Positions 511 through 43,062 of a stretch of 64,000 bases of DNA are shown here, piece after piece. Every line of letters starts with the position of its first letter. Position 1 is the first letter of the stretch. The notes below the pieces were generated by a model. The model was not told where the DNA came from, did not search any database, and was given only the letters and a program-made list of their open reading frames with translations. The translations under genes were made by a program, and so were the position numbers. Source of the DNA: Hormiphora californensis (lineage: Eukaryota; Animalia; Ctenophora). The stretch spans positions 6,386,001 to 6,450,000 of the forward strand of contig CM035356.1 in NCBI GenBank assembly GCA_020137815.1, given 5' to 3'.

Positions 511-619
511 CAGGAACCGACCGAATCTGGAAATACTGGTCCCTGATTGGCTGATAATCAGTCACGTGACCTAAATAACGAGTTCTGATTGGTTGTTTAC
601 TTGTTTCGGTCGGTTCCTG
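511..619. mobile_element. hAT-like MITE (CAGGAACCGACCG TIR), copy 1, overlapping the 3' end of the MATH-BTB ORF
   Basis: TIRs CAGGAACCGACCGAA / TTCGGTCGGTTCCTG; flanking direct repeat GATGTCC (504-510, 620-626); near-identical to the copy at 7306. Confidence 0.9.
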
Positions 620-2328
620 GATGTCCCCTTCTTTTCTTCATCCTCATCCTCCCATAGTTTCCTCCTAGCTCCAGAGAAGGGTCTCTTGTTAGAACAGGGC
701 CAATTTGAGTTCACTATCTTGCTCCAATGATTCCTTGCCATAGTTGCCAGTGTCCCATCATTTGGTATCACGACATTAACTTTGAATTTTCTATCACTCT
801 CTTCCTTTAAAGCTGTCATCAATTTACAGCTAGTTTCTGCATCGGTGTTCAACTCAACAGCCTCAGCTAGCAAGGATAGGGTATCCGCATCACATAGATT
901 GAAGTTGAAGTTTTCAAGCCAGTATTTAAGAAATGGGACAGAGTATAGGAGAGATTGTTGCACGAACTGGTCCACAATATCGAATTCCACTGCCATCACC
1001 ATAACGAGATCCATGTGAGATCGTTTTGTTGTTTCCACTAGTATCCGAGAGATCCTGAACATAAACTTTACTTTATTTTCCGGGACACAAGAAATGAGAT
1101 AGTCCAACAACCGTCTGTCTGAGTATCTCACTGCCGAGTCCAGGGCGAGAATAGCGTAGTTCCAATAGGCACCAAAATCAAGAGCTATTTTAGGGAGATT
1201 CCTCTTGTAGAACTCTAAACACCCATCCTTTGCCCAATCTACTTTGAATACAGCAACCATTTTGACAAAGTCGCTGAAAACTTTAAATTCGGTGGTATCC
1301 AATAGCATTTCTAAGGTCCCTGTGTAACACGCATCTGCAAAGATTCTAACGGATTTGGAATCAAAGTCTGACACATCATGCTCTAGTTCCCCCTCCGTCT
1401 CAATAATAGTTGAAAGAACTGGAGAATTTGTTGATAGAACAAGAGAGTTTAGGAACATTTCAGTTCCGTCTTGTAGGGAAAAGATGGCGTTTCCATGAGT
1501 AGGAAGGCATAACTTCTCTCTTCCGAAGTCGAATCTTTCTGAAACCTTTTCCTTGCATGAAAATGGTTTATCATGTATTAAAAAAGTAACCACTGAGTTT
1601 TTGTCAAATCCCGTATCAAACACAATCTTCTGTCCTAAGTTTCCTGTTTTTGTTACGATAGAATCTGGTCCGCGTACAGTAATTATAACCGCTCCACTTT
1701 GAAGATTTGAGTCAAGTTGACCATTCAAATTGTGCTTCGTTACCGTAAAGTTAAACGTCAGAGCTTCACATTTATATTGAGCCACCGTGACCCAAGTCGA
1801 GTTATTGGCTTGGTGGCTGCTGGTCATGATATTTTCATCTGAAGATAGAAAATCATCCATCATTCGATCAAAAATCACCATATTAGATCTAGCTTTAGTA
1901 ACAGTGGATGGTCCAATGTAGCTGTCCATTATCGTGACACTTGCTTCAATCGTAAAGTGTTCAACTTTAGCTAGGTCTTCCAACAAATTGTAATCGTCTC
2001 GTCCCGCTGCTAGATTATTGGGCTTGGCGTTTGAAAACTTGCATTTGTGATTAGTGGTTCTGTTCACTCCATCGGTAACGTTGGTCAAGGTAAAAGATGT
2101 TACGCACATCCACTCCTTTGTTGATTGCATAGGTCTACAGCAAAGGTATACGCCTAAGTGGACACCACTTTCTTGCAAGTAAAGATCCCAAGAAAATCCT
2201 TTGAAGATGTGGGGTTCACTGTACGAAGGTGAAGAAAACTCAAAGTTCCGTTGGAATTTTGTAGTAGCTGCCATGATGTAACCAGTAGAGCTAGATTCTA
2301 GAGGAAAGCACGAATTTGAAACAATCAT
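571..2328 (-). CDS. Intronless MATH-domain + BTB/POZ-domain protein (Cullin-3 adaptor-like)
   Basis: 585-aa ORF. MATH-like N-terminus (FSWDLYL...LGVYLCC...EWMCVTSFTL...FTIEASVTI). BTB-like segment (FSLQDGTEMFLNSLVLSTNSPVLSTII...DVSDFDSKSVRIFADACYTG). Pyrimidine-rich CAG acceptor at 2350 just upstream of the ATG. Confidence 0.75.
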   Translation of the reverse strand: MIVSNSCFPLESSSTGYIMAATTKFQRNFEFSSPSYSEPHIFKGFSWDLYLQESGVHLGVYLCCRPMQSTKEWMCVTSFTLTNVTDGVNRTTNHKCKFSNAKPNNLAAGRDDYNLLEDLAKVEHFTIEASVTIMDSYIGPSTVTKARSNMVIFDRMMDDFLSSDENIMTSSHQANNSTWVTVAQYKCEALTFNFTVTKHNLNGQLDSNLQSGAVIITVRGPDSIVTKTGNLGQKIVFDTGFDKNSVVTFLIHDKPFSCKEKVSERFDFGREKLCLPTHGNAIFSLQDGTEMFLNSLVLSTNSPVLSTIIETEGELEHDVSDFDSKSVRIFADACYTGTLEMLLDTTEFKVFSDFVKMVAVFKVDWAKDGCLEFYKRNLPKIALDFGAYWNYAILALDSAVRYSDRRLLDYLISCVPENKVKFMFRISRILVETTKRSHMDLVMVMAVEFDIVDQFVQQSLLYSVPFLKYWLENFNFNLCDADTLSLLAEAVELNTDAETSCKLMTALKEESDRKFKVNVVIPNDGTLATMARNHWSKIVNSNWPCSNKRPFSGARRKLWEDEDEEKKGTSRNRPKQVNNQSELVI

Positions 2329-4046: not shown

Positions 4047-4160
4047 GTTACCATAGCAACTGTTGTTAGGTAGTTACCATGGTTACCATAGCAACTGTTG
4101 TTAGGTAGTTACCCTGGTTACCATAGCAACTGTTGTTAGGTAGTTACCATAGCAACTGTT
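4047..4160. repeat. ~35-bp tandem repeat in the SDHA 3' UTR with four GTTACCATAGCAAC (X-box-like) motifs
   Basis: Motif at 4047, 4082, 4117 and 4143. Confidence 0.8.
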
Positions 4161-4174
4161 CTCGTTAGCATTGT

Positions 4175-7100
4175 TTAGTAAGCCCTGATAACGGGTGGGA
4201 CGGTCTTGCACTCCTCCTCATCAAGTGTAATGTCAATAACAGGACGGTAATCGAGAGTCGTTTCACCGGTAGCAGCGTTCTGGTAGGACAGGGTGTGTTT
4301 CCTCCAGTGTTCCTCCAAGGGCTTCTCGACCTGGCCTTCAAGTGGCACCTTGTAGTCGAACTCGTCGATCCTGTAGAGAGGAGAGAGAGTTAGATAGAGA
4401 AAGTAAGAGAGTTAGATAGAGTTAGTTATAGGAGGTAAGAGAGTTAGAGAGGGGGAGAGAGTTACATAGAGAAAGTAAGAGAGTTAGATAGAGAAAGTAA
4501 GAGAGTTAGATAGAGAAAGTTAGAGTTAGATAGGAGGTTACATAATATGAATAGAACGGTGCCCCAACGGTACGGATAGTAGGAGTGTAGGAAGTAATAA
4601 ATTGGGGATAACACTTAACAGTCAAATTAAACACCAGCTAAATTATACATGACTGTAATAGCGATGCGGCCCGGTTCGTAGAGGGCAGTATTTTGTGAGA
4701 CACTACCTATATTTTGAGTCGCCTGACACTGCGCTCCAATACATTACCTGTCAGGGTAGTCCTCACGAGCGTGGGCTCCACGACTCTCCTTCCTTGCACA
4801 GGCACTCTCGATAGTCTGGCAGGCATTCAGAGCAATATTCTGGAGCTCTAGTGTCTCAATTAGGTTCGTGTTCCAGATAAGACCAGTGTCATTGAGGTGA
4901 AGGTGATCCATCTTCTTGTAGACCTCCCTGGAAAAGTGAAACAATTGTGTTAGGGTCTGGGCGAGCACGTTGTGTTTGAGAGAGGGAGAGAGAATAAGAG
5001 TGACTATCAAGACAGCCATATTAAACATAGAAGAAGAATTGTCAACTAAAGAGAACTGATCATATCATGGACTGTCTTCACACTCCTATCAAGACGGTAA
5101 TCCCGTACCTAATTTTCTCGACTCCCTCCTCCAAAACCTCGCCAGTTCGGAAAACAGCCGCATAGTTCTGCATGGTTTTCTGGATCTCCATACGGACTGC
5201 AGCAGTCGTCTCAGTTCCCTGGGCGTGTCGCAGACCGTCAATGTTGGAAATTGATGCCTCGCCTGCGGGGAATTGTTGTGTGAAAACTGTTTGATTTTCA
5301 AACTAAAATAGAGATGTGAAACGGAGTAGTGAGAAAATAAAACAAGACTCTTATATAGAACATTTGAATATAATCACCTGCACTGTCCTTCAGCTCAGCC
5401 TGTGCAGCTCCTGGAGTATAATCCTCTTTGATGGTATGAGCACACGCCCGTCCAAAGGCAACCAAATCTAGGAGAGAGTTAGCTCCCAGCCTGTTGGCCC
5501 CATGCACACTGGCACACGCAGCCTCGCCCGCAGCGAGCAATCCTGGAATAACCTTGTCTTTACCAGTGGCGTGGTCGAAGGTGATCACCTGAGAGGAAAT
5601 AGGTGGTTATTATATTCGGAAAATGTGATTATTATTCGGAAAATGTGAATCGGTACGATGTACGTGATATGGGAGTGTGCGCGGTGTTGCGAGGTCACGT
5701 GACAATTGCTGTCACTGAATGCTTTCCATATGTGCGCGTCACCGCGCCATCCTCCCTCCTTCCCCCGCATCTTACCTCTCCTCTCCAGTTGGTAGGGGTG
5801 CCTCCCATGTTGTAATGGACGGTAGGTAATACGGGAATAGGTTCTCGTGTGACATCTACTCCGGCAAAGATCATGGCAGTCTCGGAAATTCCAGGGAGTC
5901 GCAGGGCAAGCTGTTCCGAAGGCAAGTGAGAAAGCTGGGAGGAACGTTCGTTACTAATTTTGGATTCTGGAACGAAGCCAAAAATCGTCACACACACGTA
6001 CACACACGTCACACACACTAATAAAACAATTTGATTTTTCTAACCTGTAGATGAATATGGTCTCCCTCAGGTCCACAGCCTCGTCCCTCTCTTATCTCAA
6101 TTGTCATGGCCCTACTGACGACGTCTCGAGAAGCCAAATCCTTTGCATTAGGTGCATATCTTTCCATGAATCTCTCTCCATTTTTGTTGGTCAAGAAACC
6201 GCCCTCCCCTCGGCATCCCTCTGTAATGAGACATCCTGCTCCGTAGATGCCTGGAGAGGGAGGGATTGAGGAGATATTAGAGCGAGGGGTGAGGCTGTTA
6301 GGTATACATTTGAGTTGTTCATTTAGACCACCCTTCAAGTAATCGAAATCCAGCTAAAGAAGAAGAAAAGTCCAGCAAAAAGAGCGTTCAAAATTCACCG
6401 ACCCCAAGGGGATTATAATTGTGGCCGGGGGATCATCCCTAAGACTCACCGGTTGGGTTCAAATCAATACTAACCAGTTGGGTTCAAATCAATACTCACC
6501 AGTTGGGTTGGTGACGCGGTCACCCCTCCACTAGGGCCGCGCGAAGCTCGTGTCATCACCAACCAGTTGGGTTCAAATCAATACTAACCAGTTGGGTTCA
6601 AATCAATACTAACCAGTTGGGTTCAAATCAATACTCACCAGTTGGGTTCAAATCAATACTCACCAGTTGGGTTCAAATCAATACTAACCAGTTGGGTTCA
6701 AATCAATACTAACCAGTTGGGTTCAAATCAACATTAATACTAACCAGTTGGGTTCAAATCAACATCAATACTCACCAGTTGGGTGAAACTGCACAAACTC
6801 CATGTCCTGGTTGGGTAGGCCAGCTCGTGTTACCATAGCAGTACCATCCCCAGTACACGTGTGAGCACTGGTACATGAGAAATAGGCCCTTCCGTAACCT
6901 CCACTTGCTAGGACCGTGTTTTGAGATCTGAATCTGTGGATACTACCGTCTTCCATACACATTGCAACCACACCTGGGGAGAGTGTATACAGGTTAGAGC
7001 AAGAGAGGGAAAAGAAGTGCTGGGTTCTAAAAACTCATATATTTTCCCTCTCTTGCTCTAAAATGTATCTATAAAGTTGTGAGCAAGAGAGGGAAAAGAT

Positions 7101-10100
7101 ATGTTTTTTTCGGACCTTTTAGATGCTATTTTTATACCTAAACTTTAGTCATAAATATAGCGTCAAAAAGCATTGCCTGCTGCTTATATTATTATGCCCT
7201 CACGACAATTGTATTACTTAACAACAGGGTGACTCTATTGTTTGTGTACACAGATCAGTACACACATTATCACTGTCAGTATACACTTCGGTGAAATACA
7301 ATATGCAGGAACCGACCGAATCAGGAAATACTGGTCCCTGATTGGCTGATAACCAGTCACGTGACCTAAATAACGAGTTCTGATTGGTTGTTTACTTGTG
7401 TCGGTCGGTTCCTGACAATATGGCTGTGTGACTTCACGCAGACATATAATTGTACATTTACACAATGTTTCCCTCTCTCTGTCATGTATGTTGCATGTCT
7501 ACTTATTACCAGTGTGTGGGTGTGTTAAAATTGAACCGAACTGTGTTGTGTGTTCACTGTTCATTAGGAACAGTGTAAATTGTCACACTCTTTTTTCTCT
7601 CACATTTCACTAAAAACTCACCCTTGCATTCTCACATTTCATTAAAAACTCACCCTTGCATTTCACTAAAAACTCACCCTTGCATTCTTACATTTCACTA
7701 AAAACTCACCCTTGCATTTCACTAAAAACTCACCCTTGCAATTCACTAAAAACTCACCCTTGCATTCTTACAATTCACTAAAAACTCACCCTTGCATTTC
7801 ACTAAAAACTCACCCTTGCATTTCACTAAAAACTCACCCTTGCATTTCACTAGAAACTCACCCTTGCATTTCACTAAAAACTCACCCTTGCATTCTTACA
7901 TTTCACTAAAAACTCACCCTTGCAATTCACTAAAAACTCACCCTTGCATTCTTACAATTCACTAAAAACTCACCCTTGCATTTCACTAAAAACTCACCCT
8001 TGCATTTCACTAAAAACTCACCCTTGCATTTCACTAAAAACTCACCCTTGCATTTCACTAAAAACTCACCCTTGCATTTCACTAAAAACTCACCCTTGCA
8101 TTTCACTAAAAACTCACCCTTGCATTCTCACATTTCACTAAAAACTCACCCTTGCATTCTCATATTTCACTAAAAACTCACCCTTGCATTCTCACAATTC
8201 ACTAAAAAACTCACCCTTGCATTCTCACAATTCACTAAAAACTCACCCTTGCATTCTCATATTTCACTAAAAACTCACCCTTGCATTTCACTAAAAACTC
8301 ACCCTTGCAATCTCACATTTCACTAAAAACTGACCCTTGCATTCTCACATTTCACTAAAAAACTCACCCTTGCATTTCACTAGAAACTCACCCTTGCATT
8401 TCACTAAAAACTCACCCTTGCATTCTTACATTTCACTAAAAACTCACCCTTGCAATTCACTAAAAACTCACCCTTGCATTCTTACAATTCACTAAAAACT
8501 CACCCTTGCATTTCACTAAAAACTCACCCTTGCATTTCACTAAAAACTCACCCTTGCATTTCACTAAAAACTCACCCTTGCATTTCACTAAAAACTCACC
8601 CTTGCATTTCACTAAAAACTCACCCTTGCATTTCACTAAAAACTCACCCTTGCATTCTCACATTTCACTAAAAACTCACCCTTGCATTCTCATATTTCAC
8701 TAAAAAACTCACCCTTGCATTCTCACAATTCACTAAAAACTCACCCTTGCATTCTCATATTTCACTAAAAAACTCACCCTTGCATTTCACTAAAACCTCA
8801 CCATTGCATTCTTACAATTCACTAAAAACTCACCCTTGCATTTCACTAAAAACTCACCCTTGCATTCTCACATTTCACTAAAAACTCACCCTTACATTTC
8901 ACTAAAAACTCACCCTTGTATTCTTAAATTTCACTAAAAACTCACCCTTGCATTCTCTCATTTCACTAAAAACTCACCCTTGCATTCTCACATTTCACTA
9001 AAAACTCACCCTTGCATTCTCACAATTCACTAAAAACTCACCCTTGCATTCTCATATTTCACTAAAAACTCACCCTTGCATTCTTACATTTCACTAAAAA
9101 ACTCACTCTTGCATTCTCATATTTCACTAAAAACTCACCCTTGCATTCTCAAATTTCACTAAAAACTCACCCTTGCATTCTTACATTTCACTAAAAACTC
9201 ACCCTTGCATTCTTACATTTCACTAAAAAACTCACCCTTGCATTCTCACATTTCACTAAAAAACTCACCCTTGCATTTCACTAAAACCTCACCATTGCAT
9301 TCTTACAATTCACTAAAAACTCACCCTTGCATTCTTACATTTCACTAAAAACTCACCCTTGCATTCTCACATTTCACTAAAAAACTCACCCTTGCATTTC
9401 ACTAAAAAACTCACCCTTGCATTCTCACCTTTCACTAAAAACTCACCCTTGCACTCTTGCATTTCACTAAAAACTCACCCTTGCATTTTACTAAAAACTC
9501 ACCCTTGCAATCCACTAAAAACTCACCCTTACATTCTTACATTTCACTAAAAACTCACCCTTGCATTTCACTAAAAACTCACCCTTGCATTCGCCGTCCT
9601 CCATGATAAGGTCCAGTGCGAAATACTCGATAAAGTAGCTACAGTTGTAGGCGAGAGATCGGCCGTATAGTGTGTGGAGAAGGGAGTGACCTGTCCTGTC
9701 CGCAACGCAACAACACCTATCGAGAGTGGATAATTTTAAATTAATCACTATCAAACATTAGGGGGTATGTATAAACCCGGATAACCCGGATAACCCGGAT
9801 AGTCCGGATAATTGATGTTTTAGAGATATATCTGGATAACCAAGCTCGGATATGGGACTCCGGATAACTCGGATACTGAAATCCGGATAACTTGGATAAC
9901 TCGGATAAGGGTCCGAATAACTCGGATAAATGTCCGGATAACTCGGATAAGGGTCCGGATAACTCGGATAAGGGTCCGGATAACTCGGATAAGGATCCGG
10001 ATAACTCGGATAAATGTCCGGATAATTGATGTTTTAGAGATATCCGGATAACCAAGCTCGGATATGGGACTCCGGATAACTCGGATACTGAAATCCGGAT

Positions 10101-11919
10101 AACTTGGATAACTCGGATAAGGGTCCGGATAACTCGGATAAATGTCCGGATAACTCGGATAAGGGTCCGGATAACTCGGATAAGGGTCCGGATAACTCGG
10201 ATAAATGTCCGGATAACTCGGATAAGGGTCCGAATAACTCGGATAAATGTCCGGATAACTCGGATAAATGTCCGGATAACTCGGATAAGGGTCCGGATAA
10301 CTCGGATAAATGTCCGGATAACTCGGATAAGGGTCCGGATAACTCGGATAAATGTCCGGATAACTCGGATAAATGTCCGGATAACTCGGATAAGGGTCCG
10401 GATAACTCGGATAAATGTCCGGATAACTCGGATAAGGGTCCGGATAACTCGGATAAATGTCCGGATAACTCGGATAAATGTCCGGATAACTCGGATAAGG
10501 GTCCGGATAACTCGGATAAATGTCCGGATAACTCGGATAAGGGTCCGGATATCTCTAAAACATCAATTATCCGGAATATCCGGGTTATCCGGGTTTATAC
10601 ATACCCCCTAGTGTTCCTTTTTTAGGGGCCACCCTGTAACTTACCTGTGAGCCTGGCCACCCTTCCCGTAGTTATAACTCTGTCCACCGAATGCTCTTTG
10701 GTAAATAAGTCCCTCGTCAGTCCGACTGAATGGCATGCCATAGTTTTCCAACTCGATAACTGCCTTGGGCGCTTCTCTGGAGAATGGAGTATGGGCGTTG
10801 GAAAATATTGAATAGTATCAGTTTCATATTCTAACCCAGGAGGAGCCCTCTAACCCTTCTAAGTATTGAGAGAGAGATAGCGAGACTTTGGAGTGAGATT
10901 CAAGTAATGCAAATAATTTGTATTTTATAACACACCTGCACATGTAGTGAATGGCATCTTGATCGCCCAACCAATCGCTACCCTTCACTGTATCGTAATG
11001 GTGCCACCTCCAATCATCAGTCTCCATGTTACCCAGAGCAGCGTTGATACCACCTGAGGGGTGGGGAACAATTAGGGAACAATTAGGGAACAGTTATGGA
11101 ACAATTAGGGAACAATTAGGGAACAGCTAGGGAACTATTAGGGACCAAGGGGGTTAAATCTGATGAGCTTTATAGAAGTAGAAAATGAAAAAAATTTCAC
11201 CTCACTAGGCTGTCACAAGGATCTTCAGATAAAACACACTAGACCTACCTTGAGCAGCGACGGTGTGTGATCGTGTGGGGAAGAGTTTGCTAATTACAGC
11301 TGTTTTGAAACCCGCCTCGGCACATCCGAATGCTGCCCGTAACCCGGCACCACCGGCACCAACTACCACTGTGTCATAGGTGTGATCTACCACGGTGTAG
11401 TTGCCGTGCATCTGGTCTGTAGGGGTGGATGAGGAGGGGTTAGAGAGGTGGGGATGGGGTTAGAGGGTGGAGGGGGTGGTTTTAGGGGGTCAGCGGGATG
11501 GAGGAGGGGAGTTATAATAGTCTTGAGGGGGGGCAACCAAGCGAAAACATCACACGTTCTCTCACACAAGCAGAAATCGGGCGTGAGAGAGAGAGAGAGG
11601 GATACCCATGCAAACCCAACGAAAACATGTCCTCTCATCTCTCATTAATCAAATGTGTTCTAAACCATGGTGACATCCTAAAAATACTTTAATCCTCCTG
11701 ATCCTTCCCTCTCTCAATCTTTGAGATTGAGAGGAGGATGGAGAGAGCTGAAGGGAGAGAGCGAGAGAATGTGTGAGTGAGAGAGAGAGAACGTGTGAGT
11801 GAGAGAGAGAACTAACCAGGTCTTGAAGAGTTGGCCGCTGATCCGACAGGGCAAATGTGAAGGGATCTGGCAGCAAGCCTCTTGGCGGCTGAAACAGCTG
11901 AGCTACTTCGGGTTATCAT
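4175..11919 (-). CDS. SDHA: Succinate dehydrogenase flavoprotein subunit, mitochondrial (12 coding exons)
   Basis: Exons 11817-11919, 11249-11416, 10936-11053, 10645-10776, 9583-9716, 6776-6973, 6045-6250, 5776-5934, 5378-5588, 5109-5262, 4748-4927, 4175-4370; all GT-AG and phase-consistent. Motifs [103 protein letters not shown]; Arg/Ser/Ala-rich transit peptide. Confidence 0.98.
4380..4545 (-). repeat. Degenerate ~22-bp repeat of the branch-point region (CTAACTCTCT...) in the last SDHA intron
   Basis: Repeated GAGAGTTAGATAGAGAAAGTAA on +, directly upstream (minus strand) of the acceptor at 4371. Confidence 0.7.
6444..6785 (-). repeat. 25-bp tandem array of the SDHA exon6/intron6 donor junction
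   Basis: Minus-strand unit TGAACCCAACTG|GT(G/T)AGTATTGATT; true junction CACCCAACTG|GTGAGTATTGAT at 6776/6775; ~11 copies, interrupted by a ~50-bp insert at ~6510-6560. Confidence 0.9.
7306..7414. mobile_element. hAT-like MITE (CAGGAACCGACCG TIR), copy 2
   Basis: Same TIRs as the 511 copy; perfect 8-bp target-site duplication ACAATATG (7298-7305, 7415-7422). Confidence 0.92.
7601..9591 (-). repeat. 24/32-bp tandem array of the SDHA exon5/intron5 donor junction (~70 copies)
   Basis: Minus-strand unit CAAGG|GTGAGTTTTTAGTGAAATG with an optional extra 8 nt (TGAGAATG/TAAGAATG); true junction GAATGCAAGG|GTGAGT at 9583/9582. Confidence 0.95.
9759..10610. mobile_element. Non-autonomous TIR element with internal 21-bp GGATAA-based tandem repeats (SDHA intron 4)
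   Basis: TAGGGGGTATGTATAAACCCGGATAACCCGG...CCGGGTTATCCGGGTTTATACATACCCCCTA; internal CCGGATAACTCGGATAA(GGGT/ATGT) array; no clear TSD. Confidence 0.8.
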
Positions 11920-12294: not shown

Positions 12295-15200
12295 CTACTT
12301 TGGGTTGATCTGTACAGCGTTATCTCTCTCCAAGTTAGCAAATGGATCAACATGTGCCTCCTCGTTAACTCGTGTTAACAAAAGGATAACGGTTAACATT
12401 CCAAATAGACTGATGATCAATATAACTATCCAACGGCGGAGATTAGCAGAAAAGGGATCGTCTCTCGTCCGACTTTTTGACACATGCAATCTGAGATCGG
12501 GAGATGATAAATTAGGGTCGGGGTGAGTAACAAATGGGTGAGTAACAAATGGAGAACAATTTTCTGAGGAAGGTGTTGTGGGAAGAATTATTACCTGAGC
12601 CATCGGGTCAACCATTCTTTCAAACTACGACGTCTGTATTTATCCTCATCACAGTCAAATGATGCTACACTGGGTCTGACTGGCTCCTCCCGTGAGTCTA
12701 CCGCTACCTTGCTCCTGTCATAGGAACCTGTGTGGAGAACAAATGAGGGGGTTAGGAACCTGTGTGGAGAACAAATGAGGGGGTTAGGAACCTGTGTGGA
12801 GAACAAATGAGGGGGTTAGGAACCTGTGTGGAGAACAAATGAGGGGGTTAGGAACCTGTGTGGAGAACAAATGAGGGGGTTAGGAACCTGTGTGGAGAAC
12901 AGATGAGGGGGTTAGGAACCTGTGTGAAGAACAAATGAGGGGGTTAGGAACCTGTGTGGAGAACAAATGAGGGGGTTAGGAACCTGTGTGGAGAACAAAT
13001 GAGGGGGTTAGGAACCTGTGTGGAGAACAGATGAGGGGGTTAGGAACCTGTGCGGAGAACAGATGAGGGGGTTAGGAACCTGTGCGGAGAACAGATGAGG
13101 GGGTTAGGAACCTGTGTGAAGAACAAATGAGGGGGTTAGGAACCTGTGTGGAGAACAAATGAGGGGGTTAGGAACCTGTGTGAAGAACAAATGAGGGGGT
13201 TAGGAACCTGTGTGGAGAACAAATGAGGGGGTTAGGAACCTGTGTGGAGAACAGATGAGGGGGTTAGGAACCTGTGTGGAGAACAAATGAGGGGGTTAGG
13301 AATCTGAGTGAAGAACAAATGAGGGGGTTAGGAACCTGTGTGGAGAACAGATGAGGGGGTTAGGAACCTGTGTGGAGAACAAATGAGGGGGTTAGGAACC
13401 TGTGTGGAGAACAAATGAGGGGGTTAGGAACCTGTGTGAAGAACAAATGAGGGGGTTAGGAACCTGTGTGGAGAACAAATGAGGGGGTTAGGAACCTGTG
13501 TGGAGAACAGATGAGGGGGTTAGGAACCTGTGTGGAGAACAAATGAGGGGGTTAGGAACCTGTGTGGAGAACAGATGAGGGGGTTAGGAACCTGTGTGAA
13601 GAACAGATGAGGGGGTTAGGAACCTGTGTGAAGAACAAATGAGGGGGTTAGGAACCTGTGTGGAGAACAAATGAGGGGGTTAGGAACCTGTGTGGAGAAC
13701 AAATGAGGGGGTTAGGAACCTGTGTGGAGAACAAATGAGGGGGTTAGGAACCTGTGTGGAGAACAAATGAGGGGGTTAGGAACCTGTGTGGAGAACAGAT
13801 GAGGGGGTTAGGAACCTGTGTGGAGAACAAATGAGGGGGTTAGGAACCTGTGTGGAGAACAGATGAGGGGGTTAGGAACCTGTGTGGAGAACAAATGAGG
13901 GGGTTAGGAACCTGTGTGGAGAACAAATGAGGGGGTTAGGAACCTGTGTGAAGAACAAATGAGGGGGTTAGGAACCTGTGTGGAGAACGAATGAGGGGGT
14001 TAGGAACCTGTGTGGAGAACAAATGAGGGGGTTAGGAACCTGTGTGGAGAACAAATGAGGGGGTTAGGAACCTGTGTGGAGAACAGATGAGGGGGTTAGG
14101 AACCTGTGTGGAGAACAAATGAGGGGGTTAGGAACCTGTGTGGAGAACAAATGAGGGGGTTAGGAACCTGTGTGGAGAACAGATGAGAGGGTTAGGAACC
14201 TGTGTGAAGAACAAATGAGGGGGTTAGGAACCTGTGTGGAGAACAAATGAGGGGGTTAGGAACCTGTGTGGAGAACAGATGAGGGGGTTAGGAACCTGTG
14301 TGAAGAACAAATGAGGGGGTTAGGAACCTGTGTGGAGAACAAATGAGGGGGTTAGGAACCTGTGTGAAGAACAAATGAGGGGGTTAGGAACCTGTGTGAA
14401 GAACAAATGAGGGGGTTAGGAACCTGTGTGGAGAACAAATGAGGGGGTTAGGAACCTGTGTGGAGAACAAATGAGGGGGTTAGGAACCTGTGTGGAGAAC
14501 AGATGAGGGGGTTAGGAACCTGTGTGGAGAACAGATGAGGGGGTTAGGAACCTGTGTGGAGAACAAATGAGGGGGTTAGGAACCTGTGTGAAGAACAAAT
14601 GAGGGGGTTAGGAACCTGTGTGAAGAACAAATGAGGGGGTTAGGAACCTGTGTGGAGAACAAATGAGGGGGTTAGGAACCTGTGTGGAGAACAAATGAGG
14701 GGGATAGGAACCTGTGTGGAGAACAGATGAGGGGGTTAGGAACCTGGGTGGAGAACAAATGAGGGGGTTAGGAACCTGTGTGGAGAACAAATGAGGGGGT
14801 TAGGAACCTGTGTGGAGAACAAATGAGGGGGTTAGGAACCTGTGTGAAGAACAGATGAGGGGGTTAGGAACCTGTGTGGAGAACAGATGAGAGGGTTAGG
14901 AACCTGTGTGGAGAACAAATGAGGGGGTTAGGAACCTGTGTGGAGAACAGATGAGGGGGTTAGGAACCTGTGTGGAGAACAAATGAGGGGGTTAGGAACC
15001 TGTGTGAAGAACAAATGAGGGGGTTAGGAACCTGTGTGGAGAAAAGATGAGGGGGTTAGGAACCTGTGTGGAGAACAAATGAGGGGGTTAGGAACCTGTG
15101 TGAAGAACAAATGAGGGGGTTAGGAACCTGTGTGGAGAACAAATGAGGGGGTTAGGAACCTGTGTGGAGAACAAATGAGGGGGTTAGGAACCTGTGTGGA

Positions 15201-18200
15201 GAACAGATGAGGGGGTTAGGAACCTGTGTGGAGAACAAATGAGGGGGTTAGGAACCTGTGTGGAGAAACAAATGAGGGGGTTAGGAACCTGTGTGGAAGA
15301 ACAAATGAGGGGGTTAGGAACCCTGTGTGAGAACAAATGAGGGGGTTAGGAACCTGTGTGGAGAACAAATGAGGGGGTTAGGAACCTGTGCGGAGAACAG
15401 ATGAGGGGGTTAGGAACCTGTGTGGAGAACAAATGAGGGGGTTAGGAACCTGTGTGGAGAACAAATGAGGGGGTTAGGAACCTGTGGTGGAGAACAAATG
15501 AGGGGTTAGGAACCTGTGTGGAGAACAGATGAGGGGGTTAGGAACCTGTTGTGGAGAACAAATGAGGGGGTTAGGAACCTGTGTGAAGAACAAATGAGGG
15601 GGTTAGGAACCTGTGTGAAGAACAAATGAGGGGGTTAGGAAACCTGTGTGGAGAACAAATGAGGGGGTTAGGAACCTGTGTGGAGAACAAATGAGGGGGT
15701 TAGGAACCTGTGTGGAGAACAGATGAGGGGGTTAGGAACCTGTGTGGAGAACAGATGAGGGGGTTAGGAACCTGTGTGAAGAACAAATGAGGGGGTTAGG
15801 AACCTGTGTGGAGAACAAATGAGGGGGTTATGGAACCTGTGTGGAGAACAAATGAGGGGGTTAGGAACCTGTGTGAAGAACAAATGAGGGGGTTAGGAAC
15901 CTGTGTGGAGAACAAATGAGGGGGTTAGGAACCTGTGTGGAGAACAAATGAGGGGGTTAGGAACCTGTGCGGAGAACAGATGAGGGGGTTAGGAACCTGT
16001 GTGGAGAACAAATGAGGGGGTTAGGAACCTGTGTGGAGAACAAATGAGGGGGTTAGGAACCTGTGTGGAGAACAAATGAGGGGGTTAGGAACCTGTGTGG
16101 AGAACAGATGAGGGGGTTAGGAACCTGTGTGGAGAACAAATGAGGGGGTTAGGAACCTGTGTGAAGAACAAATGAGGGGGTTAGGAACCTGTGTGAAGAA
16201 CAAATGAGGGGGTTAGGAACCTGTGTGGAGAACAAATGAGGGGGTTAGGAACCTGTGTGGAGAACAAATGAGGGGGTTAGGAACCTGTGTGGAGAACAGA
16301 TGAGGGGGTTAGGAACCTGTGTGGAGAACAAATGAGGGGGTTAGGAACCTGTGTGGAGAACAAATGAGGGGGTTAGGAACCTGTGTGGAGAACAAATGAG
16401 GGGGTTAGGAACCTGTGTGGAGAACAAATGAGGGGGTTAGGAACCTGTGTGGAGAACAAATGAGGGGGTTAGGAACCTGTGTAGAGAACAAATGAGGGGG
16501 TTAGGAACCTGTGTGGAGAACAAATGAGGGGGTTAGGGGGCAAAGAAAATTATTGAATCATGACCCTCTTTTCCTTACAAGAAAGTTAAAATGGGTACGT
16601 GCTGTCAAGTCAAGTCGTAAATAGAAATGACACAGTGGCAAGTTTCTATTGCAACATGACAAAATAAATTCCCGTAACTTGAAGTGGTTACCCTAGTTAC
16701 CATGGTAGTTTAGTCACTCTAGTTACCATGGTAGTTAAGTTACCCTAGTTACCCTGTATAGTAGTACCTGTGTTAGGTGACACAATTCCCACTGGAATGG
16801 AGCTGTCCTGCTTTTTAACCAGGGCCGCAACTGCAGGCGGTGTCTTAGGTTCAACCTCTGCTGCTTCTTGTTGCAGGGGTGGTCCGGGGGATGGCGTAAG
16901 TTTTACCACCGCTAGAAACAGATATTATTGATTATTTCATAGTCCTATTTTCTGCTCAAAGAAAAAAAATAGGGCCGGTTATTTCTAAAGATCAGCATAT
17001 TGTGTTTAAAGCAAAAAAGGTAAGCTATCACCGACTAACCGTTAGTACGTGCGGTTGGCATTGGTGTGCTAGTGTGTATGGGCGGTGGGAGGGTTCTGGG
17101 TACTACTGGCAGGCCGAGACCGGGCCGGGCCCAGGTCTCAGTAGCAAGGCCACTCCTCAGCGCCTCCGCAATGGCAGACTTGTTACTAGGTTCAGGGAAT
17201 ATTCCCTCCTGCGTGAGAGGGGTTTAAACATCATCAGATAGTTTTTACCCTTCAAAACTTCCACCAAAATATCCAACCAAAACAGAAACTTGGTCACGAA
17301 ATGACAACCCTCACACTCTGAGTGGTGATTAATAATTAACTAATTACAGTCGGACCCCGATTTAGTGGCATCCTCGGGGGAAAGAAATCCTGCCACTAAA
17401 TCGGGGTGCCACTAAATCGGGGTGAGCCATATTTGGCCCATAAAAACCTATTTTATGCCCAAAATGCTATACTAAGACTAAAGACACCTGTTATATGCAA
17501 TATTCATGTATTGATGACATGATCATATCTAATTAGAAATAGAAAACTATCAAATAACTTTTTCAAAAAATTTGTGAAAAATTTTCTAAGTCATACCAGC
17601 CCGTCCAATTTGTGTTTCGAATCGGTGCAGCTTCCTGGATGTCCTGTCTAATTAGCAGGTTCGAAACGAACCGATACGTGATACCATGCCGAATCGGTGC
17701 ACCCTAAGCGGGTGAGGAAGTATCAAAATTTCAAAATAACATTTTCTCTCAAAATTTATGGGGAGCACCGATCAAAGCATTGACAATCGTACTGTAAAAT
17801 TTTGCAAAAAAAAGTTTTAAAATTTTTTAAAGGTATACCAGCCACGTCCGAATCGTGTTTCGAATCGGTGCATCTTATCGCATGTCTTGCTGCTAATTAG
17901 ACGGTTCGGAACGAATCGAAACGTGATCCCCATCGAATCGAAATTTTGACGCTTGGTAAACTTATGACTCAATGGCCCCATGGGGATCACGTATCGGTTC
18001 GTTCCGAAATGTTAATTAGCAGCAGGACATGCGATAAGATTCACTGATTCGAAACACGATTTGGACGTGGCTGGTATTCCTTTGAAAAATTTTCAAAAAA
18101 TTTTCAAAAAAATTCACAAAAAAATTCAAAAAAATTTTTGGGGGAAAAAAATCCTGCCACTAAATCGGGGTGCCACTAAATCGGGGGCCACTAAATCGGG

Positions 18201-18661
18201 GTCCGACTGTACCTAATTACTAATTACCACACTAACCTGGCATGTTATACAGGTGTAACCCCCAGGTGCAGTGGTGGCCGGTAGGGACTGGGCGTATTTA
18301 GTCAGGCACTGTTTATGAAACACGTGTAGACATAGTAGTCGGATAGTGGGGTGTGCAGATAGTGGGTCGTTACAGAACCGACAGTTAGGCACGTACTCCG
18401 AGTCTTGCAGCCATTTTAGATAAGTTTGGACAATACACTGTGTGGAATAAAATGGTTGTTTTTATCTTTTGTGAAATCAAAAGTTATTACACTTGGTTTA
18501 TTTATATCAGTCTGAAATCGGTTGTCAAAGCTAAGATATAAGATGAAATGTTTGGGTACCTGGGAGTGAGTTGAGAGAAGACAAGTCTCACAGACGTTTA
18601 CCCGACATTCAAAACAAAACAAGTTTGTGACCTTCTTCAGCGGACATTTACAGAGCCCCAT
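12295..18661 (-). CDS. ZFPL1: Zinc finger protein-like 1 (B-box-like + RING/PHD-like zinc fingers, C-terminal TM; cis-Golgi), 6 exons
   Basis: Exons 18560-18661, 18237-18437, 17040-17208, 16768-16911, 12595-12727, 12295-12490, phase-consistent. [28 protein letters not shown]...[15 protein letters not shown]...RLLCLHVFH...TAPGGYTC...WARPGLGLP...DEDKYRRR...TM...DPF. Confidence 0.95.
12721..16537 (-). repeat. 32-bp tandem array (~119 copies) of the ZFPL1 intron-4 branch point + acceptor junction
   Basis: Minus-strand unit ACCCCCTCATTTGTTCTCCACACAG|GTTCCTA; true junction CACACAG|GTTCCTATGAC at 12728/12727. Confidence 0.97.
17347..18209. mobile_element. Tc1/mariner-type MITE (CAGTCGGACCCCGATTTAG TIR, TA TSD) in ZFPL1 intron 2
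   Basis: TA|CAGTCGGACCCCGATTTAGTGGC...GCCACTAAATCGGGGTCCGACTG|TA; sub-terminal CCACTAAATCGGGG repeats; internal ~100-bp inverted repeat at 17835-18080. Confidence 0.88.
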
Positions 18662-25758: not shown

Positions 25759-26206
25759 CCTCTCTCTCTTTGTTTCTATCTTTCTCTCTCTTCAGCTTGT
25801 GTGTCTTTTATGCTTCTTATTCTTTATCTGTAAAGCAGCACACACAGCCCCGGCGTGAGAAAATGCTTTTTAGAGTGGTGTGATATATGCACTCTAGTAT
25901 GACACGATGGGGCGATCAAATATAACCATATGGTATCATACTAGAGCGGTATTGCAACAACTGTGCATATATATCAGTTATCACACCATTGACAATTTAG
26001 GAAACAGTCACAGTCCAACCCCGATTTACCGGAATCCCGATTTACCGCGATGATAAATTTCCCTCCAGCATTCCGGTTAATCGTAAATCGGGGTCCGTAC
26101 TTAACGTCTTGCGCTTTACTTCATAATGACCCCTTCACTTCCACTATAATCTTAGTGATGTTCTGATCTCTAAATCTAACCAACATTTCTCTAGGATGGA
26201 TTAATC

Positions 26207-26644
26207 ATGTGTGATGACGAGGTGATATTTAATTTTGAGTCAGATATTCCAGTCGTCCAAAGTCCCACTTCAGCCCCACCGCCCAGCCCAGAGGGAGTGA
26301 GACGCCATGAGATGGCCCCTGCGCCACCTAACTCTATGATAATGCCACCCTTCCCGAACCGCGCCCCAAACCCTTCCCGACACCATCTCCCGTTAGACCA
26401 GCTGGCAGAGCGGTTAAATTCCCTCTGCGAAGAGTTTTCTGAAATGGAAACAATGGACTGTTGCGAACAAATCGTTCGAAGTGGGGCCGAGGTTAGCTCA
26501 CTCAAGATGAGTTCTCTAAAGAGGAGAACAAGCGAGAAGTTATTACCATATCCTATTATCTCCCGGGGAGAGGGAGACAAGGCAGGGTGTAGGGGTAAAT
26601 CAGGACGATCGCCTCCCTTTCTAATTCACTCCGCACCTCGGTGA
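26207..26644 (+). CDS. Hypothetical Pro-rich 145-aa protein, single coding exon
   Basis: Non-repetitive ORF preceded by a CTAAC branch point and TTTCTCTAG acceptor (26194); no domain recognised. Confidence 0.55.
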   Translation: MCDDEVIFNFESDIPVVQSPTSAPPPSPEGVRRHEMAPAPPNSMIMPPFPNRAPNPSRHHLPLDQLAERLNSLCEEFSEMETMDCCEQIVRSGAEVSSLKMSSLKRRTSEKLLPYPIISRGEGDKAGCRGKSGRSPPFLIHSAPR

Positions 26645-26818
26645 TCAATCCTTCTCTTTATCAGTGTTTCCTTTTTTTTCTTCTTTTTAAGACACAATTA
26701 AATACAGCATGCGGTTTGTGTTAGGACAGGGTTAACTTCTTCAAACGATTACAGAAATACATTCTTGTGTACAGCTATATTGTTATTTTTGGTTCTGTTA
26801 TTTTCTGTTTGTGCAAAA

Positions 26819-27206
26819 TAGTAGGAGCGGATAGATCTGCTGCCGCCAAAAGTCGCACGCCACCCGATTTGGGCATTGTCATAACCCCTTCATTTCAAAT
26901 TCAATCAAAAAATGGTCCTGAAGTTCAGGACCATTTTGTGATTTGATATGAAGTGAACAAACTACATAGGACCCCGATTTAGGGACACCCTCGGGGGAAA
27001 GGCTCTTGTCCACTAAATCGGGGTGTCCACTAAATCGGGGTCAAATAAGGTTAATTTCCTTTATCGGGGGAAAAAAAATCCTGTCCCTAAATCGGGGTGC
27101 CACTAAATCGGGGGCCCCTAAATCGGGGTCCGACTGTATAACAATGTCCAAATCGGGCGGCGTGCGACTTTTGGTCAAGGTGGGAGATATCTATCCGCTC
27201 CTACTA
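26819..27206. mobile_element. MITE with TAGTAGGAGCGG TIR, copy 2, carrying a nested CAGTCGGACCCCG-family MITE (~26965-27137)
   Basis: TAGTAGGAGCGGATAGAT...ATCTATCCGCTCCTACTA; inner GGACCCCGATTTAG...CTAAATCGGGGTCCGACTG|TA. Confidence 0.8.
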
Positions 27207-27669
27207 AAACGAGGGAACGTTTTGAGTGAAATTTGCTTTTTTTTTCCGCTGGCATTTGAAAAATGTATAAATACACGCCACACCAGAAAATGCCATGTTT
27301 CGATATATATTTTCGGAGCGAAAACTGCAGCATATATCAAAAATTGTTTCATGCCTTCTTTTTTGTGTCATATTTCTTCCAGATCTACTGTTTTTTGTTC
27401 AAATAACTCTTCTAACACTGTGTGGACACTTTCTGTAAAGAGGGAGAGTTTTTTGTGTTTGCCGGCAGTCAATGCACAGCATCGGTCGCTCCACCTGACT
27501 TCCTTCAGGCAGTCATGTGGTGTGTAGCATTACGTGTGTTTGTGTCTTAGATTGCGTTTTATTTTTTGTATCCAAAGTACGGTTAAATGAATTTCATATA
27601 ACGTGATATATACACCACAATTACATATTATATGCGATAGAAAATGCTCCGAGTTTCAATTCTCACATC

Positions 27670-27993
27670 TTAGATAAGAGGTTCCCCGGTGCTGCTGCTG
27701 CACAGCTGCCTCAGTATTCGGACTTGATGTAACGCGCGACAGTCGTATCTCTTTACAAACGATAGTTCAAGCTTGCGCGGCTGCGCGCTTATCAAACTCA
27801 AAATGTGGTGCGCGAAGGAGTTTATGCGGGGGTTCTCGCGCGTTACGTTGTTCCCACTCCCTTGGGACTGTAGTGGGGTACCAATTGCTGTCTTCCGGCT
27901 GCTGGCGGTGCTGTGCAGCAGATAAAGTACGTAATGTCTCCCTCTCTCATTGGATATAGGGGGACCTAGACGGTCGTTCTGTGTGGCGGACAT
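27670..27993 (-). CDS. Hypothetical 107-aa protein
   Basis: GC-richer ORF whose ATG lies 2 nt after CCCTAAT...CATACAG (acceptor at 27996); no domain recognised. Confidence 0.4.
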   Translation of the reverse strand: MSATQNDRLGPPISNERGRHYVLYLLHSTASSRKTAIGTPLQSQGSGNNVTRENPRINSFAHHILSLISAQPRKLELSFVKRYDCRALHQVRILRQLCSSSTGEPLI

Positions 27994-28316
27994 GTCTGTA
28001 TGGTCGATAGAATATAGATTAGGGAGAGATGGATATCACTAGGAGAATAGAAACACGGCGAATAAAAGAAAGGATCATCTCTGTTTTTACACAATCAGCG
28101 TGACATTAAAACATAAACACATTACAGATCCCAGATAGAAACACTTACTCAGCGAATAGTATAATTTTCTATCGTTAACCCTTGTAAAAGACTGCCCTCT
28201 CCGAACCGGGAGCGTTAAATGTTTCCCAAAAAACTGTACCTTGAACTGAGGTCTCTGTTCAAACCAAAAAAAATTACACTGCTTTAAACCCGTCAGTCCT
28301 AGTTCTACTAGTTACA

Positions 28317-37419
<9,103 letters not shown>

Positions 37420-38377: not shown

Positions 38378-41300
38378 CTAGTTTTCCTGCAGTTGGAGGT
38401 GTCCTTTTGGTATTTCAGTACGTTGTTCCTCCTCTTGATTCTCCATGGTAACGACAGTCTCCTCCCTAGCAACCGTCTCCATGGCATCCGGTTCATCAGT
38501 GAACTCCTGATGGTTTATTGGTTTCACTCGTTTTACCATCATTACAGATATGGTCGAGAGTGCTATGCAGCCACAACCAATTAGTGTCCACACGTCCGGG
38601 TACTCCCTGTAGGAAAAATGAACATGAATTTAGTGGATTGGGGACAAGGGACTCGGATCTAGTGTGCAGATAGACCCTCTGGAATATTGCAGATTGATTC
38701 AGTCACTAATGAAACAAAGGAAGAGAGTTCATCTACAGAAGAAAGAAAAACTCAAAAGATCACCGCTAATCAACAAACTAGCCGATATAGTATACCACAC
38801 ATCACACCATATATTACCTGAAAATGAGAAACTGGAACCCAAAAGGCAGGATGACATCCAGGTACTTTAGAAGGGAAGTTTTACCGGGTTGTCCATACTG
38901 CATCGCTGCACAGACTGACAGTTGTTGGAGACAGTACATTAACCCAACCATCCACAGGTAGGTAAAGTTCTGAGGGAGGAATCAGATAGGAGATTAGGAG
39001 GTTTTGAGAGGGATTGCAGTAGTTGTGTGAGGGAGATAGGAGGTTTTGAATTGGGAGATATGCGGTTCTGAGAGGGGGAGATGAAGTTCTGAGAGGGGGA
39101 GATGTGGTTCTGAGAGGGGGAGATGTGGTTCTGAGGGAGGGAGATGTGATTCTGAGGGAGGGAGATGTGGTTCTGAGAGAGGGAGATGTGGTTCTGAGAG
39201 AGGGGAGATGTGGTTCTGAGAGAGGGAGATGTGGTTCTGAGAGAGGGAGATGTGGTTCTGAGGGAGGGAGATGTGATTCTGAGGGAGGGAGATGTGGTTC
39301 TGAGGGAGGGAGATGTGGTTCTGAGGGAGGGAGATGTTTACTGTGTAGTTGTATGAGGGAGAGATAGGAGGTTCTGAATTGGGAGATATGGTTTGGAATT
39401 GGTTCTCGTTTACTGGGGCCTGGGCCGCGGGGGATCGATAAGAGGAGGTTTTGTCTGGCAACCCGATATGAGCGCACTGTTTGAGAGTCAAAACGGGGTC
39501 TTGTGTGTAGAATTAGATGGACTCGGTTGAAGCAAGATCAAAACCAGCTTCATTCTTCTATCTTCATGAAGACATGGCCTCTCATTTTTTACAACTAATT
39601 ACCAGAATTGAAGGCAATGTCCAGGTTTTCTTCATGTCCTTGTCTGCAATGCTTTCAACCAATACGGTTACTGAAAAGGAAGAGTGAGTGAGAGGACGAG
39701 TGAGTGTAGAGACACGACATCTATGACATGGTAAGCACATATGGTATCCACATGATAACCACATGCTATGCACATGGTATCCAAATGGTAACCACATGGT
39801 AACCACATGGTAACCACATGGCAACCACATGGTAAATACATGGTAACCACATGGTAACCACATGGTAACCACATGGCAACCACATGGCAACCACATGGTA
39901 ACCACATGGTAACCACATGGTAACAAGCTATAATTACCCATAAGAATGAGTGTAGAGACAAGAAATCCAAGGGAACTCAGACACATTACTATCACAGTTG
40001 TAGGGACTGCCCCGGTACACGATACTGACACATACTTTGCTGCCTTGAAGAAGCCTCTTCCTGTTGTTCGGAGGGATTGTAGGTTAGTATCTCTATTATA
40101 ATTTGGAGATGTCGCGTCGAAGTGGCCGTTCGTTCAGTGCGTTTCTAAGCGACAGTGCTCCTTCATAAAACACTTCATATGACGAAAGCTGTAAATCTGT
40201 TATTCACACTTTTGGAACTTCCGGTGGAAGTTTGTTAATATTTTTGAATGACTTTCAACATGTCAGTTCCGAAAGCTATCAATTCAGTTGCCATGGCAAC
40301 CGTGTTATTGACGTGGAAGGGGGCGAAAAGAACCACCCGGCGAAGCCGGGTGGGTTATCAAAAAGCCCTTACTTGAGGCGCACCCAATGGGTGCGCTAGT
40401 ACTAGGTATAATTAGGATTTAGGCTGCCCGGGTTTCTTGTGTTTGAAACTGTGATTGTTTTAGTCTGAGAAATACTGATTACTGAATGATGAAATGATCT
40501 GCTGATAATGTCATAACATTACCTAGAGCGACGACAATGGAGATATAGAAAACAGGAGAGCTCCTCCCACTCTCTCCACCCCCAAATATAAAGGAAGGCT
40601 GGGCCACAAAGAACACCCCAACGGTTGCCACCACAAGGGAGATGTAGTCAAATATCAGGAGTTTTTCTTTCAGGAACACGTGAGATAGGAGGACTGTGAA
40701 GATCGGAGCTGTAGTCAGAAGGAGGGTCGCCTCACCTGTAAATTACAGTGTAATGGAGCTGTTACCATGGTTACCTGGTCACCGGGGTTACTAGGAAGCG
40801 ATGTACAGGGGATTACGCGATGTGCCCAACGGGGTTACCAAGGTTACCATTAAGGTTACCAGGTTACCAAAGTTACTCGAACCCCTCTCTTTCGAACTCC
40901 ATTTTGGGCAGGCCACAGCGGTAGTAACAACACACCCTACCTACCGATGGGAAGATGACGGAGGGCAAAGACAGTTGACATTGCGGTAAGTGTTCCCAGA
41001 ATGGCCGTCAGCACTATCATCCTCCAGTTTTGGTATTCCGTGGGTCCTGGGTACCTGGTCAAGGGGGAGGTATAGTAATCAACTCAGTAATAAAAATAAG
41101 TTCAAAATAACGGGTGACAACTAAAAATCTGGACACTTTTCTGTGAGCTCTAGCGCCGTCCCCGTTTGAGATACAGCTTCAGGCCAGTGATAGAACGAAT
41201 TTTCAGACAATTTTGAATCAGAATAACACAACGGGAAAGACTTAAAAGTTCATTTTCATTGCGATATCGCATCACTTCCTCTTCCCCCACCAAAGCATGT

Positions 41301-43062
41301 GTTACGTGAAATTTACACACTTTTCTAGCACCTCTAGCACCAGTTCTTTTTGAGATACAGCTTCGGGGCAGCGATAGAATGATTTTTTAGACAATTTTGA
41401 ACGAAATTAACTTTGTTCCACACTCCGTTAATCTCAACTCTGATCACAGAATCATCTGTAACAAACCTTTCAAATCGTAGTTTACAGGTAATTTGAGAAA
41501 TCGCCATTTTGACGATCTCTCGAAACATTTATGACGTGGAAAACCAACTCCCTGATAAGCTAAAATGTTGAAACTTGGCAGTTATGTTGGTTATGGCATG
41601 AACAACCAGACTTCCAATTTTGAGAATTCTATTTCATCGGGAAGGTTGTTTCTGATCACATAGAAATCTCAAATCTCCGTACTACATGCTTTGGTGGGTC
41701 AAGAGGAAATGATGCGATATGGCAATGAAAATGAACTTTTTAGTTTTTCCCGTTATGTTATTCTGATTCAGAATTGCCTGAAAATTCGTTCTATCACTAG
41801 CCCGAAGCTGTATCTCAAACGAGACCGGCGCTAGAGCTCACAGAAAAATGTCCAGATTTTTAGTTGTCACCCGTTATATAGATCCGTCAACATTAGAAGG
41901 GAATGATTACCTACCCCTGCAGGCAACCATTGTTACCCCTGGCAACCAGAAAAACAACTTACAAAAAGGGAATGATTACTAATTACCTACCCCTGGTAAA
42001 AGTTTATGAGGCAGGTGATAGCTAGTGTAAAGAAAAACCTCCACCAAAGTATCTCCACAATGGGCATGTCCTTTATCAAATCTGCAACAGGATATCAGAG
42101 CTTGTTACCATGGTTACCATGGTTACCAGGAGATCAGAGCTTGTTACCATGGTTACCATGGTTACCAGGAGATCAGGTCGGTCAACAGCAGCAGGGATCA
42201 ATGGAAGCAGGATTTGGGAATTGGGAGGTATAAAAGGGAGAGAGAGTCGAGCGAGGCAAGGGAAATCAACACACCGTGGTTTGGGAGCCGTACGGTATAT
42301 ATAATGGATATAGTTATTCAGTCAGACCCCGATTTACCGGGATTCTCATGGGAAAGGGAATCGGGGTTCCGGTATATCGGGGCCTGGTAAATCGGGGTCC
42401 GAGTATACCTGTGAATAATGAGCATATGGCAAAGAAGAAACAGGAGAGAACTGTGTAGAAGTAAACCCAATAGTCATCAGGCATGGCCGATATTATCTCC
42501 TTCCCCCGGCGAGTCAGCCAGCTTTGTTCTGCGTATAGCCGTAGCTTTCCAACCAACTCAAATACTGACATCACCCACTTCTGTAGGGGGGATTGGTGTG
42601 TTTTAGCGGTGCTCACAGTCCTAACAAACTAAAACAAAATGCAACTGAGCAGCAGCAGCTGTATGCATAATTAATTGGAATATGTGCAGTAGTGAGAAAT
42701 ATTTTGTAGTCTATGTAGTAGTAGTAGAACCAAACCAGTGGTCCAACCACATTGGATCAAATGAGCTGTACGGTACTGCTGCAGCTATAAAGTGTCAAAA
42801 ACCATTCAATTTGAATTACAGTCGGACCCCGATTTAGTGGCATCCTCGGGGAAAAAATCCTGCCACTAAATCGGGGTGCCACTAAATCGGGGGCCACTAA
42901 ATCGGTGTCCGACTGTAATTCAAAGCAAGTTGCTTGAGTTTCAAACTAAATATTACCTTGACAGTGAGGTTGATGTTTCTAAATTCCACGATAGATAGCT
43001 CTGAGAGATCTTTTAGTTTATCTCGCGCTGAGGCCTTGTAGACCAGCCAATCGTAATACCAC
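38378..43062 (-). CDS. SLC35G-like EamA/DMT-family transporter; first exon not located
   Basis: Exons 42957-43062, 42409-42628, 41991-42081, 40945-41054, 40523-40735, 39938-40060, 39603-39670, 38818-38969, 38378-38606, phase-consistent. Motifs [81 protein letters not shown]. Confidence 0.88.
38967..39385 (-). repeat. 21-bp tandem array of an SLC35G acceptor junction
   Basis: Minus-strand unit CACATCTCCCTCCCTCAG|AAC; true junction TTCCTCCCTCAG|AACTTT at 38970/38969; about 13-14 clean copies at 39060-39335. Confidence 0.85.
39735..39925. repeat. 11-bp tandem repeat GGTAACCACAT next to an SLC35G donor
   Basis: Directly visible; begins ~12 nt into the intron. Confidence 0.9.
40090..40399 (+). 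mobile_element. Non-autonomous Helitron
   Basis: A|TCTCTATTATAAT 5' end; 3' GC-rich hairpins (ACCCGGC-GAA-GCCGGGT; GCGCACCCA-A-TGGGTGCGC) followed by CTAG|T. Confidence 0.7.
41108..41876. mobile_element. Long-TIR (~200 bp) non-autonomous DNA transposon, TA-flanked
   Basis: TAACGGGTGACAACTAAAAATCTGGACA...TGTCCAGATTTTTAGTTGTCACCCGTTA; inverted similarity extends to the CCCACCAAAGCATGT / ACATGCTTTGGTGGG pair. Confidence 0.88.
42819..42915. mobile_element. Short CAGTCGGACCCCG-family MITE, TA TSD
   Basis: TA|CAGTCGGACCCCGATTTAG...CTAAATCGGTGTCCGACTG|TA; related copies at ~26010-26097 and ~42319-42403. Confidence 0.85.

Follow-up and report, generated by a model that had tools for sequence, protein, structure and literature searches.

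In human F7, the first unit of the 37-bp VNTR of intron 7 crosses the exon-intron boundary, and in minigenes the resulting pseudo-donors proved functional when tested, while the most upstream of the identical donors alone was used (Borensztajn et al. 2006, PMC1557585). That report also cites donor-repeating arrays of 10-25 units in IFI6 (6-16) intron 2, CBS intron 13, LMNB2, and PDGF intron 4; the authentic donor alone is used in LMNB2 and PDGF, and two pseudo-sites are used besides it in IFI6 and CBS (cited in PMC1557585). Amphioxus "mirages" are intron-exon boundaries, 5' or 3', that have been duplicated in tandem; they are recorded for Adh3, the globins BflGb6/9, troponin C, and PGBD5 (PMC3087553; PMC3902484). 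Several occur per genome, and they leave normal splicing undisturbed (PMC3087553).

The window analyzed here, a stretch of 64,000 nucleotides from the ctenophore Hormiphora californensis, holds such an array in the gene for SDHA. The gene model lies on the minus strand (4175..11919) and comprises 12 coding exons for 652 aa; all 11 introns are GT-AG, the frame has no internal stop over the 652 aa, the product shares 90% identity with the SDHA of Mnemiopsis leidyi, and ctenophore SDHA proteins align to the 12-exon model without gaps. Exon 5 (9583..9716, minus strand, 134 nt) matches residues 189-232 of SDHA chain 8gs8_A (664 aa) and ends in a phase 1 authentic donor after 9583 (site at 9582). 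Intron 5 is 2609 bases long, and a tandem array fills its first ~1985. The unique remainder (6974..7597, minus strand) carries the real acceptor (AG at 6975-6974), beyond which the gene model places exon 6 (6776..6973, minus strand), into which the loose ends of RNA contigs read.

The array is a junction-spanning minisatellite (7598..9592, minus strand) of 24/25- and 32/33-bp units, with 70 donor-like sites that consist of the real donor at 9582 and 69 copies. The first-pass annotation had counted about 70 copies of a strong donor behind exon 5, and the number stands: 66 of the 70 sites, including the real donor, read exactly AAGG/GTGAGT (cut after AAGG), and four are variants. Shuffled sequences gave a mean of 0.31 exact sites and a maximum of 2, with none of 100 shuffles reaching 66. 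"Strong" is accurate only in part, as the exon 5 donor, although fairly strong, is not optimal: by predicted U1 duplex energy it ranks 7th of 32 donors in the window, and it agrees with the textbook consensus at six of nine positions. TRF reported period 32 with 69 copies, and period 24 over one part; the 69 complete units comprise 31 of 24 bp, one of 25, 29 of 32, and eight of 33. At its end, every unit carries the final 8-9 bases of exon 5. The two unit sizes do, as had been proposed, restart through microhomology, which is visible when the exon end is set against the last unit and the tail: an intronic AATG equals the AATG of the exon for the 24-bp unit, and a GA in the intron matches the GA of the exon end for the 32-bp unit. 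The block duplication noticed earlier is likewise present. A higher-order block at 8358..8708 (minus strand) recurs 530 bp further on, at 7828-8178, over 351 bases with at most two mismatches, and the order of private unit variants recurs at the same distance. The motif TTTTTAG, initially credited to each unit, occurs in 65 of the 70. It stands before a 12- or 20-base piece and then the next donor, as an acceptor would in a putative tandem microexon array, and its pyrimidine run is five bases long; a search by eye for a branch-point-like motif in the array units saw none.

The units are head to tail and fall within the range of ~10-160 bp, the outermost lies over the real junction with the splice site reiterated in the intron, and the normal mRNA uses the exon-adjacent site, as seen in RNA contigs of runs X8 and X9 and in P0132, an apparently transcript-derived protein from a contig of 1427 bases. 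The SDHA array is an ordinary junction-spanning minisatellite, of the kind represented by the F7 VNTR and the amphioxus mirages. As in F7, identical donors are reiterated into the intron and the upstream-most is used, in F7 even with some pseudo-sites in frame; F7, however, is a mammalian gene with 5-9 copies of one unit, for which length polymorphism and decoy capacity have been shown, whereas the ctenophore array has 70 copies of two interleaved units plus a block duplication and is known from sequence and assembled RNA (PMC1557585). LMNB2 and PDGF are similar in that the authentic site alone is seen in use (for SDHA, in shallow contigs), while IFI6 and CBS differ in their use of pseudo-sites, none of which was seen in use in SDHA at shallow depth; the SDHA array outnumbers all four, with 70 copies against 10-25 (PMC1557585). 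The mirages belong to a marine invertebrate and involve both 5' and 3' boundaries, and so cover the donor and the acceptor arrays of this window. Their units measure 10-160 bp, with few copies in the globin cases, against 24/32 bp and 70 copies in SDHA, and haplotype and somatic length instability has been shown for the mirages (PMC3087553). Both the arrangement and the use of the first site are already published (PMC1557585, PMC3087553), and the SDHA array is new for its lineage only. A literature search, mostly without subscription papers, found no ctenophore case, and the accessible parts of PMC10078293, PMC4039745, and PMC8527503 contain nothing on junction-spanning arrays.

Sequencing runs were compared by means of a query made of exon 5 and the first two array units, covering four of eight DNA and four of twelve RNA-labelled runs. 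The RNA runs are marine metatranscriptomes, represented by contigs with a depth of ~4-11 in the three close runs, and rare forms get dropped from such contigs. Those of X8 and X9 show two differences in 141 bases of exon 5, match the window as far as 9580, and then run on into exon 6; a contig of X7 also ends at 9580. The three bases past 9583 are common to the intron start and exon 6, and the contigs of X8 and X9 join 9583 to 6973. P0132 crosses this junction gap-free, and the exon boundary proposed at 9583 is upheld. Exon 5 is spliced straight to exon 6 in the X8 and X9 contigs, without pieces of the array between. A contig of X20 has the same join but 18 differences in 137 bases, and therefore comes from a relative. 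At the protein level, P0132 is 99.75% identical and gap-free from residue 37 to residue 440, a span that includes the positions of introns 5 and 6, and P0124, at 97.5% identity and without gaps, spans both introns canonically. X20 shares its species label with the DNA run X1 despite the 18 SDHA differences (window 9582-9718); its label or sample probably covers another species.

All four DNA runs compared (X1, X5, X6, and X15) contain array unitigs. X1 may be the source sample, X5 and X6 represent one sample (S2), distinct from X1, and X15 bears a second species label, so that the presence of the array in raw data, on which the earlier proposal depended, is borne out in assemblies of two samples and under a second species label. 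The number of unitigs aligned was 160 for X1, 23 for X5 (mostly array), 62 for X6, and 18 for X15. X5 and X15 connect an array unit to the unique tail past the array end, and the unitigs of X1 and X6 contain many unit variants, among them those that differ in T-run length in the assembly. No contig among the four DNA runs spans the whole intron 5 array, and under a rule of 31 bases none formally links exon 5 with the array: X5 and X6 enter the intron by 7-10 bases, and record 10 of X15 has 30 exon bases, below the threshold. Contig depth was considered as a measure of copy number and rejected, because the array-to-exon ratios of X5 and X6 differ several-fold although they come from one sample; the alignments of these two runs used unequal likeness settings, X1 lacks coverage of exon 5 and gives no calibration, and depth does not equal copy number. 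The array is real and common to several samples. The figure of 70 copies is taken from this assembly only, given that there is no spanning contig and no formal bridge and that the depth ratios disagree. When metagenome contigs were screened for the array unit, no match emerged. In the neighboring intron 4, an element at 9760-10610 with inverted ends (TAGGGGGTATGTATAAACCCGG) is filled by a 21-bp array; the sequence of sample S2 (X5, X6) parts from that of the window precisely at position 9759, and X15 carries a third version. Intron 4 looks polymorphic for insertions.

Other junctions in the window are also reiterated. Intron 6 of SDHA begins with a second donor array (6444..6783, minus strand; 12 sites, 25/31-bp units), in which each of the 11 decoys leads immediately to a stop; it is broken by ~55 bases of other sequence, and some copies read GTTAGT. 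The neighboring gene, which we take from its features to be ZFPL1-like, has an array of 119 tandem 32-bp acceptors (12721..16537, minus strand), each copy a complete acceptor with CTAAC, a pyrimidine tract, and CAG. Of these acceptors, the last (12727) alone leads into an open frame, and it is there that P0121 is joined, a Pleurobrachia bachei gene model (not a read) from EukProt with 90-98% identity per exon to this gene. By these identities and that of SDHA to its Mnemiopsis leidyi counterpart, the animal falls among the ctenophores, in or near Pleurobrachia. The donor of the same gene at 18237, placed from P0121, has no extra copies. Altogether, of the 64 splice sites annotated across four genes, three have at least five extra copies and a fourth has four; a fifth gene at ~26200-36500 is left out of this set. 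In a transporter-like gene (38970-39337, minus strand), a 21-bp array has CCTCCCTCAGAAC in common with the real acceptor (38969), from which it is set back by 90 bases; the worn copies nearest this acceptor read AA, not AG, as if competing AGs had been lost.

The window contains further repeats and open frames. On the minus strand at 48148-51761 are 134 copies of a 27-bp coding repeat, Thr/Ser/Pro-rich and mucin-like; downstream of them lies an open frame of 10 exons, which ends at ~44800. The adjoining sequence (51760-64000) is garbled and G/T-rich, with GC skew up to 0.98, and has the look of a poorly assembled region, which may derive from the mucin-like repeat. An intronless ORF of 585 aa (571-2328, minus strand) is MATH/BTB-like by eye. 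Short MITE-like elements, which have inverted ends and contain TGCCACTAAATCGGGG repeats, form a dispersed family at 17350-18210, 26970-27140, and 42820-42920, and small arrays made of palindromic GTTACC/GGTAAC words lie at 4047-4150, 16690-16753, 39726-39924, 42088-42176, and 45741-45817, several of them near intron ends. An open stretch (33524-33878, minus strand) inside an intron of the receptor-like gene left out of the site count has a motif suggestive of a non-LTR retrotransposon RNase H.

Our preferred reading is that the array is a 70-fold minisatellite of the exon 5/intron 5 junction, that the assembled RNA uses the first donor, and that repeat instability probably produced the copies as a neutral by-product, removed with the intron; we put its probability at about 85%. 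The junction was probably first duplicated by slippage or mis-repair between the short matches (AATG 24 apart, GA 32 apart), after which slippage and unequal exchange would have enlarged the array, mixed both units, and copied the 530-bp blocks. Because the coding exon would stay intact only where duplications face outward, it is such duplications that would survive. The array is likely harmless in that, by analogy with the human experiments, the most upstream, exon-defined donor among identical ones would be committed first; the rare choice of any decoy beyond the first would bring an early stop and probably nonsense-mediated decay, and the array copies would leave with the excised intron. 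Masking of the decoys by RNA structure was considered and rejected, the real donor having a predicted openness of 0.44 and the seven that follow it 0.32-0.71. Since the donor ranks 7th of 32 by predicted energy and is predicted to be no more open than its decoys, position is likely to decide the choice, rather than strength or structure. The earlier suggestion that an essential gene tolerates a 2-kb donor array fits the RNA contigs with the 9583-6973 join and the gap-free P0132. Against neutrality stands the occurrence of the array under the second species label of X15, which could mean age or maintenance.

Function of the decoys is one alternative to this neutral reading. When each donor choice is translated, two of the 70 donors keep the frame open, the real one and the decoy at 9558, which closes the first array unit (9559..9582, minus strand, 24 bp); the other 68 of the 69 decoys lead to early stops. 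Use of this +24 donor would add eight residues without a stop, as the first-pass annotation had stated. It could be a used donor that yields a minor SDHA isoform with eight extra residues in the FAD-binding domain, with the inner decoys tuning SDHA via unproductive splicing, a scenario that we regard as very unlikely. The +24 and real donors are identical in their nine bases and equal in predicted U1 duplex energy, and because human IFI6 and CBS each use two pseudo-sites besides the authentic one (PMC1557585), some use of the in-frame +24 donor is plausible by analogy. However, the isoform hinted at earlier finds no support in the shallow RNA contigs: none of the four RNA runs gives evidence of decoy-donor use, depth is 0 over 9527-9571, and the first unit is uncovered in all four. 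Nor does the insertion appear in proteins. Among 75 homologues (those matching the pattern, from 120 fetched, many of them partial), the spacer at the insertion point has eight residues in 72, nine in three, and never 16, and all 12 ctenophore-cluster proteins that cover the site, of 15 among the matches listed, lack the insertion. We take this point to be a short hairpin in the FAD-binding domain. The in-frame status is itself near chance, in that 31 of the 69 units are 24 bp long and stop-free in the +24 frame, and the sister arrays have no in-frame decoy.

Two further explanations concern the existence of the array rather than its use. That it is an assembly artefact, or greatly over-expanded, would agree with the garbled stretch from ~51760 to the end of the window, with the low array-to-exon depth in X5 and X15, and with the want of a spanning contig; we consider it extremely unlikely, given the unitigs in all four DNA runs, the joins of unit to unique tail in X5 and X15, and the ordered recurrence of private variants at 530 bp. 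Alternatively, minisatellites may arise preferentially at splice sites through a genome-wide process, for example if pausing of transcription or of the spliceosome favors breaks or slippage. The three reiterated sites of 64, and the fourth with four copies, are in keeping with such a bias, as is a placement null in which three of nine intronic arrays lie at junctions against 0.92 expected (P ~0.05). But P rises to ~0.17 without the focal array, and a second, cruder null expects 2.6 where three are seen; both nulls concern one window and an array list hand-picked from TRF-type repeat calls. Enrichment of arrays at splice sites was accordingly rejected, neither null being significant once the focal array is dropped: the introns of this window are simply array-rich, and an excess at junctions is unsupported. 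We judge a splice-site bias unlikely; it would in any case be compatible with the neutral by-product explanation, to which it merely adds a cause.

Taken alone, the SDHA array matters little; it extends junction-spanning minisatellites to a ctenophore. A broader reading is that ctenophores of this group amplify junctions genome-wide (three of 64 sites here, with up to 119 copies), that the exon-adjacent site wins on both sides, as first donor and as last acceptor, as exon definition would predict, in a lineage among the first to branch off in animal evolution, and that the +24 donor leaks a minor +8-aa SDHA whose share is set by the array allele. We think this combination quite improbable. With 69 decoy donors in SDHA intron 5 and the 118 decoy acceptors of the neighboring gene, the window offers a natural test of how strictly the exon-adjacent site is used outside bilaterians.
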